A stretch of DNA of 64,000 nucleotides from Octopus vulgaris (Eukaryota): contig OX597839.1 in the NCBI GenBank assembly GCA_951406725.2, positions 5,394,001 through 5,458,000 of the forward strand, written 5' to 3'. The notes beneath the pieces are model-generated. The model did no database searches and had not been told where the DNA came from. It worked only from the letters and a program-made list of their open reading frames with translations. Made by a program: the position numbers and the translations under genes. Of the stretch, positions 14,385-63,295 are shown piece by piece; positions within the stretch are counted from its first letter, which is position 1, and each line of letters opens with the position of its first letter.

Positions 14385-14570
14385 CATAGTTGGAATTTAC
14401 CAAACAAATAATAGACGAAGACAGGTGTGTGAGACAACAAACACGTATATTAGTTTAACGTTCGGGAGGTGAGAAAGTCTTTTACGTTTCGAGCCTACGC
14501 TCTTCAACAGAAAGGGACACGAGAAATTAAACAGAGAGAATAAAAAAAAGCTTTAGTAGCTAGGTGTTAA
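14385..14570 (-). mobile_element. TA-embedded mini-element with a hammerhead-like motif (Penelope/retrozyme-like)
   Basis: Flanked by TA repeats; homologous to 47428-47657; motif at 14479-14514. Confidence 0.7.
14479..14514 (-). ncRNA. Variant minimal type I hammerhead ribozyme motif
   Basis: CTTT-CTGTTGA-A-GAGC(GTAG)GCTC-GAAA-CG-TA-AAAG: stem I, variant core, stem II, GAAA, palindromic ACGT stem III. Confidence 0.6.
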
Positions 14571-15263
14571 TTATATGTATATATATATATGTGTATATAT
14601 CTATATATATGTATATATGTATATATATATATATGCATGCATAAAAATATGTGTCTATATATTTATGTGAACATACATTCATTCATACTCATTGCATGCA
14701 TATAGATGCAAGATGCATTATATATGCATATAACACATAAATACACACACTCATTCATATGTGTGTGTGTGTCTGTGTGTCTGTGTGTGTATTTCTCTAT
14801 ACATGTATATTAGATCATCAGACATATTCAACAAGGATATTTTTGTAAACAATTTATTTTCTAGTTTCGAATAAAAAAATATAATACCCAATGAAGCGTT
14901 GTAAACCTAGAATTTTGAACACTACGCATATTAAATAACACCCAGTGATTCTTTTTGCTGCTACGGTATGTGTGTGTGTTTTTTGTGTGTGTCTGTGAAT
15001 GTGTGTGTGTGTTTGTTTATGTGTGTGCACACGTTCAGTTAAGCATATATAGGAACAACTGCACGGCCATGACCTCAGACTAACTTTCGATACCGATGTT
15101 TTCATTTCTGTCGTATTCTAAGATAATCTGTGTGTCAATCCGTGTGTCTGTCTCTCTCCCTTCCTCTTTCTCTCTCTCTCTCTCTCTCTCTCTACATGTA
15201 TGTGAAAATAAATATAAATATATATATACATATATATACACATATATATACACATATATATAC

Positions 15264-47427: not shown

Positions 47428-47657
47428 TCTATCATGGCGTCCTGTACGAAGTCAGGACGCCACGATAGATCGTTAGCTCCTACACGCAGGTTTTCTCTCC
47501 TTGTTTTTTTTTCTGTGTATCTTTCTGTCGAAGAGCGTAGGCTCCAAACATAAAAGACTTTTTCTATTTCTATTCCTCAGCGCTATACTAATACATTTGT
47601 TTGTTTTTTACTCCACCTGCCTTCGTCTTTTGTTTATTTTCGTAAACTTTCCCGTTA
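47428..47657 (+). mobile_element. TA-embedded mini-element with a decayed hammerhead-like motif and a 5' hairpin
   Basis: TCTTT-CTGTCGA-A-GAGC(GTAG)GCTC-CAAA-CA-TA-AAAGA at 47520-47557; 16/17-bp hairpin at 47428-47469. Confidence 0.7.
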
Positions 47658-50319: not shown

Positions 50320-50537
50320 AAGGCGGTGGGGTGGCAGAAACGTTAACGCGCTGGCCGAAATGCGTAGCGGTATTTCGTCTGCCGTTACGTTCTGAGTTCA
50401 AATTCCGCCGAGGTCGACTTTGCCTTTCATCTTTTCGGGGTCGATAAATTAAGTACCAGTTACGCACTGGGGTCGATGTAATCGACTTAATCCGTTTGTC
50501 TGTCCCCCCTGTGTTTAGCCCCTTGTGAGTAGTAAAG

Positions 50538-50541
<4 letters not shown>
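50320..50541 (+). mobile_element. SINE family B
   Basis: Consensus match with a small tail deletion; the tail is duplicated in inverted orientation at 50587-50627. Confidence 0.87.
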
Positions 50542-50589
<48 letters not shown>

Positions 50590-50854
50590 CTTTACTACTC
50601 GCAAGGGGCTAAACACAGGGGGGACAGTGTATAGTGTGAGAGAGACAAACATCGTATAGTACTCTAAATGACCTAAGATACTCGTCCTGATTTGGGTTGT
50701 GGTCCATTTTCCTTTAATATGTACCTGCTAATTCGGAAGCCTTAGCTATGAACTTGGAACCTAACGGATGACCAATCACAGCACTTGCGCAGCGTACCCA
50801 TTCGTTCAGATAAGGAATGAACTAAACCCATCATATTGTTTGTTTGTTAGTTTG

Positions 50855-52783: not shown

Positions 52784-53002
52784 AGTTAATCCAAACATGA
52801 AAGCACAAAAAAAACACAACATCACGAGGACGTGGATCAAATATAGTATTATTGGACGCTCAGGAAAGAAGGAAAGAAGGAGGGTTTAACGTTTCGAGCG
52901 GAGCTCTTCGTCGGAAACATAGGAGAAGAAAAGATCCAGAGAAGGGAAGACAGAGGAAAAAAATCGCCAACGGTACACACGCGGTCACATTTTGAATGTG
53001 AC
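52784..53002 (-). mobile_element. TA-embedded mini-element with a hammerhead-like motif
   Basis: (TA)n on both sides; closely similar to 63091-63295; terminal 8-bp hairpin at 52984-53002. Confidence 0.8.
52884..52918 (-). ncRNA. Variant minimal type I hammerhead ribozyme motif
   Basis: GTTT-CCGACGA-A-GAGC(TCC)GCTC-GAAA-CG-TT-AAAC, with palindromic AACGTT. Confidence 0.65.
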
Positions 53003-55548: not shown

Positions 55549-55712
55549 CCGGGGTGAGCGCGAACGCAGTCCCCACACTTAGAAATGGTGCACCCGAGTC
55601 GCCCACATTTGGGGCGATCGCAAACGTCAACCCAACCGGAGTGCAATGGAAGGGTCTCACTCTAGGAGAACCACCTTGTTCATCATGGTTTACCCCTGTG
55701 CCAGGTAAGTAT
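55549..55712 (-). ncRNA. U1: U1 snRNA full-length copy (variant or pseudogene)
   Basis: Minus strand starts ATACTTACCTGG; SL2 loop CATTGCAC; SL3 CCCCAAATGTGGG; SL4 GGGGACTGCGTTCGCGCTCACCCC; 164 nt. SL1 loop (GATGAACAAG) and Sm site (CCATTTCTAAG) deviate from consensus. Confidence 0.92.
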
Positions 55713-59846: not shown

Positions 59847-59914
59847 GAGGGGGAGAGAGAAATAAAGAGAGACACAAGAAAGATAGAGTCACTAAAGTCA
59901 CACACTTTAGATAC

Positions 59915-60125
59915 GTAACCGCACGTTGACTGTTGGCGAATATCCCTCCTTCTTCCTTCTTTCTCTTTGAACGTCCCTGTTGTTTCCGACGAAGAGCTAT
60001 GCTCGAAACGTAAAACAACAACTCACTTCTTTCACCGAGCGTCGTATTAATACATTGCTTGTGCTACGTACTCACGTTTATTTGTCTTTTATTATTTTGT
60101 ATTTCTTTTCTCTGTTTTTTTTTTT
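59915..60125 (+). mobile_element. Diverged member of the hammerhead-bearing mini-element family
   Basis: Shares ACCGC...GTTGGCGA and GAGCGTC...TAATAC blocks with 52784-53002. Confidence 0.65.
59978..60020 (+). ncRNA. Variant minimal type I hammerhead ribozyme motif, best-formed copy
   Basis: TGTTGTTT-CCGACGA-A-GAGC(TAT)GCTC-GAAA-CG-TA-AAACAACA, 8-bp stem I; predicted cut after A60012. Confidence 0.68.
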
Positions 60126-60850
60126 AAATTGACAATATACATACGTATACATGCATACATACACATATGTATATACATGCACACACAGACACACGCACAC
60201 TCACACATACATACACACGCACGCACACACAAATGATGTCTGTGTCTATGTTTGCATATATGTATATAGAAATACACATACATTCATTCAAAATTTGACA
60301 GCCTGTGTCGGTTTGTTTACGTTCACGTAAATTAACGGTTCGGTTATAGAGAACGAGATGTGAAAGCAGCGACAAATACTGAAATCGGCTTGTTTGACTC
60401 AAACCCTTCCAGATGCTGCCCCAGCATGGCTAAAGTCGAATGACAGCAACACATACATAAATAATTAAATAAATAAATAAATAAGACGTGAGGTATCATT
60501 TGTTCGTAAATATTTGATGTGCCTTCAATTAGTGTAATTAATTCACTGCTTAAACAGATTGAAGAGCGTAAAACTGAAAAGTAAAATCAGCCAAAGATTT
60601 CCTGTCGTCATAAGACCTGTAATTCATCATCAGATTGCAAGCACCACACATCATCATGATCAACATCGTCGTCGTCGTCGTCTTCATAATCGTTGTCGTC
60701 GTTATCATGATCATCATCATCATAATCACCAACATGATGATCAATTTCTTGATCATGATTATCGTCATCATCAGTATCATCAATATCATCATCGTCATTA
60801 GCATCAGCAGCAGCGGCACTGGAGGCGCAATGGCCCAGTGGTTAGCTTTT

Positions 60851-61539: not shown

Positions 61540-61725
61540 TTTACGTGACACATTGGATCTCAGTTCCCAATTCTGTTTTGGTTAACGGGCCTTCTTGAAT
61601 ACAGCAGCGTGCCATATATTTCGGCCCTCTGTGACCTTCGTGAGGCTTAGTGTTTTCAAATTGGGATTTCAGTATTTCGTCCCATGTCTTCCTAGGTTTG
61701 CCACTTCCACAACTACCTTCCACCT
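61540..61725 (-). mobile_element. RTE-clade LINE 3' fragment
   Basis: VEGSCGSGKPRKTWDEILK matches the G.R.RGRP...W motif at RTE ORF ends. Confidence 0.6.
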
Positions 61726-63082: not shown

Positions 63083-63090
63083 TTATATAT

Positions 63091-63295
63091 AGTTAATCCA
63101 TACAAGAAAGCAAAAAAACACACAACAACGTGAGGACGTGGAACAATATAGTATTATTGGACGCTCAGGAAAGAAGGGAAGAAGGAGGGTTTAACGTTTC
63201 GAGCGGAGCTCTTAGTCGGAAACATAGGAGAAGGAAAGATCTAGAGAAGGGAAGACAGAAGAAAAAAAATCGCCAACGGTACACACGCGGTCACA
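63091..63295 (-). mobile_element. TA-embedded mini-element with a mutated hammerhead-like motif
   Basis: Copy of 52784-53002; motif at 63189-63223 has core CCGACTA (G8 changed to T). Confidence 0.8.

Follow-up and report, generated by a model that had tools for sequence, protein, structure and literature searches.

How did five hammerhead-like motifs come to lie within 64 kb of Octopus vulgaris DNA, and can motifs whose catalytic cores are altered still act as ribozymes? The window, meaning the whole stretch of 64,000 nucleotides that was analyzed, was predicted to hold such motifs at 14479, 47520, 52884, 59978, and 63189, and all five were confirmed at these sites. An exact pattern matched the window three times, compared with a mean of 0.00 over 100 shuffles. 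A relaxed minimal-hammerhead descriptor, the type of search that the original prediction had called for, returned the same three matches, with none in 20 of 20 shuffled sequences. A chance origin of the motifs was rejected on these counts (0 in shuffles). Two copies had been described as carrying core damage, and this is borne out for the motifs at 63189 and 47520 (Table 1). All five copies in the window are inert.

Table 1. Motifs and element ends in the window (positions counted from its first letter)
Feature	Positions	Strand	Remarks
5′-truncated Neptune-type PLE 3′ end, family C	59903..60134	+	copies 78–84% alike upstream, old; ends approximate
Minimal type I hammerhead motif (focal)	59978..60020	+	U4C core, extra A, 4-bp stem II, CG palindrome
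Focal motif, stem I/stem I′	59978-59985/60013-60020	+	8 bp
Focal motif, core C3-A9	59986-59992	+	CCGACGA
Focal motif, extra A	59993	+	
Focal motif, stem II	59994-59997/60001-60004	+	
Focal motif, GAAA	60005-60008	+	followed by CG
Focal motif, U and H17	60011 and 60012	+	H17 = A60012; predicted cut after A60012
5′-truncated Neptune-type PLE 3′ end, family A-main	52784..53000	-	aligns over its full length with the 3′ end of ORF-bearing L104
Motif of this copy	52884-52918	-	U4C core, 4-bp stem I, H17 = U52888
Second family A-main end	63090..63295	-	motif from 63189; private G8U, predicted dead
5′-truncated Neptune-type PLE 3′ end, family B	47431..47656	+	aligns with the 3′ end of ORF-bearing L156
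Motif of this copy	47520-47557	+	A6U core; private G12C and G16.2A
14-bp inverted duplication	47431-47444		at the 5′ junction of the family B copy
Family B end, other subfamily	14388..14571	-	
Motif of this copy	14479-14514	-	core CUGUUGA (A6U, U7), 4-bp stem I, H17 = A14483

The loop sequence divides the motifs into three families: A with UCC (52884 and 63189), B with GUAG (14479 and 47520), and C with UAU (59978). Families A and C can be aligned along their full length. Between A/C and B representatives, the motif is at least 85% alike and the upstream flank is at the level of shuffled sequence, a comparison that is partly circular for copies selected by the pattern but not for L117 against L156. 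Rfam covariance models run on 59930-60080 gave no hammerhead match up to an E value of 10, as expected for a motif that has no stem III; on the whole window, the Rfam output was swamped by miRNA models driven by microsatellites. A tblastn search of the window found no PLE coding remnant.

The short copies are 3′ ends of 180–230 bp, truncated on their 5′ side and inserted at TA microsatellites. In 30 unselected copies, the 3′ end lay mostly 84–135 nt past the motif and the 5′ end was variable, while (TA)n terminated 23 of the 30. According to Cervera 2014 (PMC4209133), most genomic minimal hammerheads are found in this truncated state. Since most copies are short, they could be independent small non-coding ribozyme mini-elements, retrozyme- or SINE-like and with a unit length of their own, the more so as many family A copies start about 75–90 nt upstream of the core and a coding remnant was reached in a minority of the extended loci. 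However, the 5′ ends run as an unbroken ladder through the 3′ UTR and on into the endonuclease and RT, the copies are dispersed monomers rather than short tandem units (the tandem units that do occur are 6.2 kb long and coding), and from one end to the other the short copies can be aligned with 3′ ends of coding elements. Animal non-LTR retrozymes (bioRxiv 10.64898/2026.07.22.740005; PMC7229834) share the type I hammerhead and the PLE link, but they are short non-coding tandem units, whereas the octopus copies are dispersed ends of coding elements and do not form short non-coding tandem units each with a hammerhead. The mini-element explanation is thus largely refuted, and we regard it as very improbable.

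The parents of the short copies were reached by walking upstream, which led to an RT, Zn-linker, and GIY-YIG frame or to endonuclease remnants for all three families. For family A, the walk passed through a CA-rich region into coding sequence. At L104, a frameshifted RT-endonuclease frame is followed by about 1.9 kb of CA-rich 3′ UTR and then by the motif; L103 and L107 agree with this order (endonuclease or RT-EN frame, CA-rich UTR, motif). A young sister subfamily of A was represented by many near-identical copies in the protein search (122 scored of 21,603 candidates), and its copies L115-L117 carry open frames of 1008 residues with the motif about 270 nt upstream. At one locus of this subfamily, head-to-tail units of about 6.17 kb place the motif at 2002, 8166, and 14357, and eight motif pairs 5.6–6.2 kb apart were counted by hand among the first 100 young-subfamily matches. 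The motif therefore sits in repeats that flank the RT-EN frame. For family B, two of nine extended loci reach a second frame, whose protein is 66–68% identical and whose UTR measures 0.8 kb, while the other seven of the nine held no coding remnant. In 2 of 30 loci of family C, remnants of the endonuclease lay about 1.2 kb upstream; two family C loci extended together with those of family B were without a coding remnant. A family B search seeded with L025 returned only L025 itself, and the 30 best GIY-YIG loci belonged mostly to another PLE family and did not point to the parent.

In these elements, the RT precedes a C-terminal GIY-YIG domain within a single frame, and the linker that joins RT to EN reads C-x4-C-x2-C in families A and B. 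The link of the motif to this frame of RT, CX4CX2C linker, and GIY-YIG domain was observed directly. The protein relatives are animal proteins carrying PF00078 (RT) and PF01541 (GIY-YIG); a Pfam scan of two L104 pieces gave no match. A CX2-5CxxC linker is by definition common to Neptune and Nematis. The Neptune clade (Craig et al. 2021, PMC8557442) has the same single frame of RT, CX2-5CxxC linker, and C-terminal GIY-YIG domain, as well as the same partial tandems, 5′ truncation, and microsatellite bias. The nearest entry is Neptune1_Ap, which about 54 of 94 residues of the RT N-terminal block match by hand count. Partial tandems (pseudo-LTRs), 5′ truncation, and microsatellite targets are all present in the octopus copies. 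Unlike the Neptune elements presented in PMC8557442, those of the octopus have CA-rich 3′ UTRs of 0.8–2.9 kb, units of 6.2 kb, and variant hammerhead cores. With the clade assigned from motifs and hand comparison, the five motifs are almost certainly ends of Neptune-type PLEs.

The green anole Poseidon element (Frangieh et al. 2024, PMC11167929) likewise places a hammerhead in the pseudo-LTR, starts reverse transcription downstream of it, and targets AT-rich sites. Poseidon belongs to another clade, however, its frame starts inside the ribozyme, and the passages of that article used here describe no core variant. In the octopus elements, by contrast, about 445 nt separate C3 from the first ATG downstream. 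Among the rows of the PMC8557442 supplement that were covered, the octopus entries are Naiad families only, and the words hammerhead, ribozyme, and Neptune are absent from the main-text passages of an octopus repeat paper (PMC13282606). Taken together, the 5′ ladder, the coding parents, and the shared protein features identify the short copies as 5′-truncated ends of Neptune-type PLEs. The original prediction was thus right in seeing minimal type I hammerheads of a Penelope-type retroelement, now linked to RT-EN frames, whereas the possibly undescribed lineage of mini-elements it proposed dissolves into truncated 3′ ends of protein-coding elements.

The details of the motif also follow a known type. 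An unpaired nucleotide lies between A9 and G10.1, the G10.1-C11.1 closing pair is present, and GAAA is followed by the palindromic 15.2-16.2 positions and then U-H, with ACGU in all families. The extra A had been singled out as unusual. Yet a conserved nucleotide that separates position 9 from 10.1 is a general feature of PLE minimal hammerheads, for which the G10.1-C11.1 pair and the palindromic 15.2-16.2 are likewise listed (Cervera 2014, PMC4209133), and the extra nucleotide is found in the Acropora digitifera Neptune motif. This coral motif (PMC4209133, Fig. S3) has a nearly identical architecture: type I, the extra nucleotide after A9, G10.1-C11.1, a 4-bp stem II ending in GCUC, GAAA-CG-U-H, an absent stem III, a short stem I, and an RT-EN pseudo-LTR position. 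Its core, in contrast, is canonical. Element class, extra A, dimer model, and motif type were already known. The difference lies in the core letters, because all 56 motifs in that figure, which contains no cephalopods, have U4 and A6, whereas the octopus families have C4 or U6. The octopus stem I is also U-rich/A-rich and is broken in the youngest subfamily, unlike the motifs of the same figure.

Genome-wide counts establish that these core letters belong to whole families, as the original prediction had suggested for U4C and A6U. A pattern covering both core types gave 15,997 exact matches in the 2.8 Gb genome and none with the reversed control. The family A, family B, and young A subfamily patterns gave 9,842, 16,446, and 1,528 exact matches, respectively. 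Core states were read from the first 100 matches per family, located on one contig and with exact flanks, those of A and B being hand-counted. At position 4, family A (first 100 of 9,842) had C in 70, U in 28, and A in 2; C4 rose to 96 of 100 in the young A subfamily (first 100 of 1,528) and was found in 27 of 29 copies of family C. A canonical U4/A6 sub-lineage made up 21 of the 100 family A copies. Family B (first 100 of 16,446) carried U6 in 96 copies, with C3 in 99, U4 in 97, G5 in 97, G8 in 97, and A9 in 100. The cores thus depart from CUGANGA by C4 in families A and C and by U6 in family B, and retain C3, G5, G8, and A9. Two sister families have spread to tens of thousands of copies after changing a normally fixed catalytic letter.

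These counts bear directly on whether the core changes are merely neutral decay, through CpG deamination and random mutation, of dead copies made by canonical masters. Such decay is real and affects about 3–5 of 100 copies at core CpG sites. It runs from C to T, however, opposite to U4C, and the near-uniform C4 of the young subfamily and of family C and the U6 of family B do not resemble it. In family A, U4 at 28 of 100 exceeds the mirror CpG change G5A (3 of 100), so masters with U4 and with C4 must both have existed. The counts refute neutral decay, and we give it practically no weight. As separate observations on single insertions, one young insertion carries U4 in both of its motifs (C1:93329422 and 93335320) though its subfamily is C4, as if one template had supplied both ends, and another young motif pair (69896257/69902427) differs between its ends.

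Reportedly, Lunse, Weinberg and Breaker in 2017 presented about 150,000 small PLE hammerhead variants. Outside that catalogue, which may list them, no family-wide U4C or A6U was found in the literature for PLE hammerheads, and no report of U at position 6 was found. Single core variants are known elsewhere: a U4C viroid hammerhead and an A6C hammerhead of phage Bcep176 retain low activity, and the A6C variant shifts preference to Mn2+ (PMC3088659; PMC7151607). As presented in these sources, they are isolated, rare examples that have a full stem III, whereas the octopus variants number thousands of copies, have no stem III, and carry U at position 6. When a type III hammerhead was scanned by mutation, activity was low for single changes in the CUGA turn (PMC9901934). 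Since a normally fixed catalytic letter has changed in each family, the octopus motif likely cuts slowly at best.

The stems give a mixed picture. Pairing was predicted to be kept while stem I varies, and this holds for A-main and B, with 4 bp of stem I in 47 of 52 A-labelled copies and at least 4 bp in 52 of 66 B-labelled copies under a rough labelling rule that misfiled about seven. It does not hold for most of family C or for the young A subfamily. The 8-bp stem I belongs to the focal copy alone, and among 29 family C copies, 7 have at least four pairs and most have two. All eight young A copies have one contiguous stem I pair, and a U.U mismatch adjoins the cut site. Across A, B, and metagenome relatives (20 chosen sequences), stem I showed two-sided changes at three of four pairs, and 92% of its cells were pairing, a value reached in none of 500 shuffles. 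That many two-sided pairs, on the other hand, were also attained in 164 of 500 shuffles, and the 20 sequences are related. Stem II is invariant in the genome and so yields no covariation.

In folding calculations, the young A motif reached −1.3 kcal/mol as a hammerhead-like structure vs −8.8 kcal/mol for a competing hairpin. The hammerhead dimer was the minimum-energy cofold in none of seven examples, under models that ignore the tertiary core and the protein. As a side observation, the core G5-G8 in families A/C and in metagenome relatives can pair with CGU-H to form a competing hairpin (window 59988-60012; 6 bp in relatives). Position 7 is mostly C where this hairpin can form, in A/C and the metagenome relatives, and is free in family B. 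The idea that U4C and A6U both weaken this competing core/CGU helix fits only partly.

The broken stem I of the youngest subfamily and the short stem I of most family C copies favor another explanation of the same elements, namely that catalysis was lost and the motif was kept as a folded, protein-bound RNA signal for RNP assembly or for placing the start of reverse transcription about 100 nt downstream. A different activity-lowering core change became fixed in each of two sister lineages, which still reached many thousands of copies, and insertion of the anole PLE proceeds in vitro without cleavage (PMC11167929); both facts suit a non-catalytic signal. The pattern of conservation speaks against it. 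Family B keeps G8, G12, the C3-G8 pair, and G5, and only N7 drifts: every base occurs at position 7 (A 25, C 20, G 11, and U 44 in the first 100 of 16,446). Free variation at N7 alone is the constraint pattern of a hammerhead core, in which N7 is the free position. H17 also avoids G, which occurs in 1 of 134 copies, and between A-main and B the changes in stem I compensate each other. Protein binding could in turn produce part of this pattern in family B, H17, and stem I. We consider the non-catalytic signal a tentative alternative, possible but not the reading we would choose.

In contigs from four other organisms that span the family B motif, N7 is the only core position with a listed difference, in an alignment at 85% that favors like sequences. 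Downstream of related frames, a canonical CUGACGA motif was found in 8 of 80 metagenome loci. A protein tree of single segments, midpoint-rooted and built with the reference clade sequences left out, joined A and B (support 1.000) and placed the canonical-core relatives as their sister group (0.918). With A and B beside canonical-core relatives, U4C and A6U are probably separate derived states. One clade offers a natural series that runs from a canonical core through U4C and A6U to U4C combined with a broken stem I in a young, ORF-intact subfamily.

We consider it rather probable that the motifs are 3′ ends of Neptune-type PLEs, placed in pseudo-LTRs, whose source motif is a slow, dimer- or protein-assisted cutter that tolerates U4C or A6U. 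By analogy with PLE work, a read-through transcript from an upstream copy would carry the motif twice. The two motifs could pair through the ACGU palindrome to form a stem III, or the element protein could fold them, and slow cleavage after H17 would follow. The protein would then nick AT-rich DNA, reverse transcription would start about 100 nt downstream of the motif, and its usually early end would leave the short copies. The anole PLE hammerhead cleaves only with its protein, and its cleavage is dispensable for insertion in vitro (PMC11167929); Naiads thrive without canonical hammerheads. On the present analysis, we lean slightly toward residual cleavage in the masters of at least family B or A-main, and it seems unlikely that each insertion requires cleavage. 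It is conceivable, though we are doubtful, that the family B U6 and family A C4 hammerheads are functional and that the Neptune protein or folding as a dimer rescues them, in which case two non-canonical cores would have been fixed independently, held by hammerhead-type selection across several related species, and missed by standard CUGANGA searches.

Whether Penelope movement needs cutting is an open question in the accounts of PMC8557442 and PMC11167929, and the natural core series makes it testable. If the variants cut, hammerhead cores tolerate more than has been assumed, and over 26,000 exact motifs of this genome alone escape descriptor searches. If not, they are direct evidence of a ribozyme retained and amplified as a non-catalytic signal. 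Either outcome would be informative.

Several minor observations concern the elements and their surroundings. The 3′ UTRs of family A consist of 1.9–2.9 kb of degenerate CA-rich sequence (L104:4900-6650; L112:5291-8100); as these belong to the element, these PLEs may seed CA-rich simple repeats genome-wide. The 3′ ends at L037, L042, L049, L053, and L060 come from another abundant young PLE family with 781-residue frames, whose hammerhead-like motif has a U3-A8 swap and a 6-nt palindrome but lacks the extra nucleotide. The 3′ ends at L034 and L058 and the region upstream of L026 belong to a further PLE family with a CUGAAGA core and a palindromic stem III. Inverted neighbors like that at the family B junction in Table 1 occur at L004 and L134, and one contig on L135:1507-1678 joins back by 172 nt, which may reflect a short tandem of the family B end. 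Within the window, a degenerate hammerhead-like motif at about 61610-61650 (minus strand), with G5 changed and an unclear stem I, may represent an old PLE end from a different family. A near-perfect inverted repeat at 50501-50626, with arms of about 40 bp around a TA tract, resembles two repeat-end copies meeting at a microsatellite. Additionally, a full-length U1 snRNA match at 55549-55712 (minus strand) scored 122.6 bits, above the gathering score, with a divergent Sm-site region; it sits between simple repeats and is likely a retroposed or variant copy.
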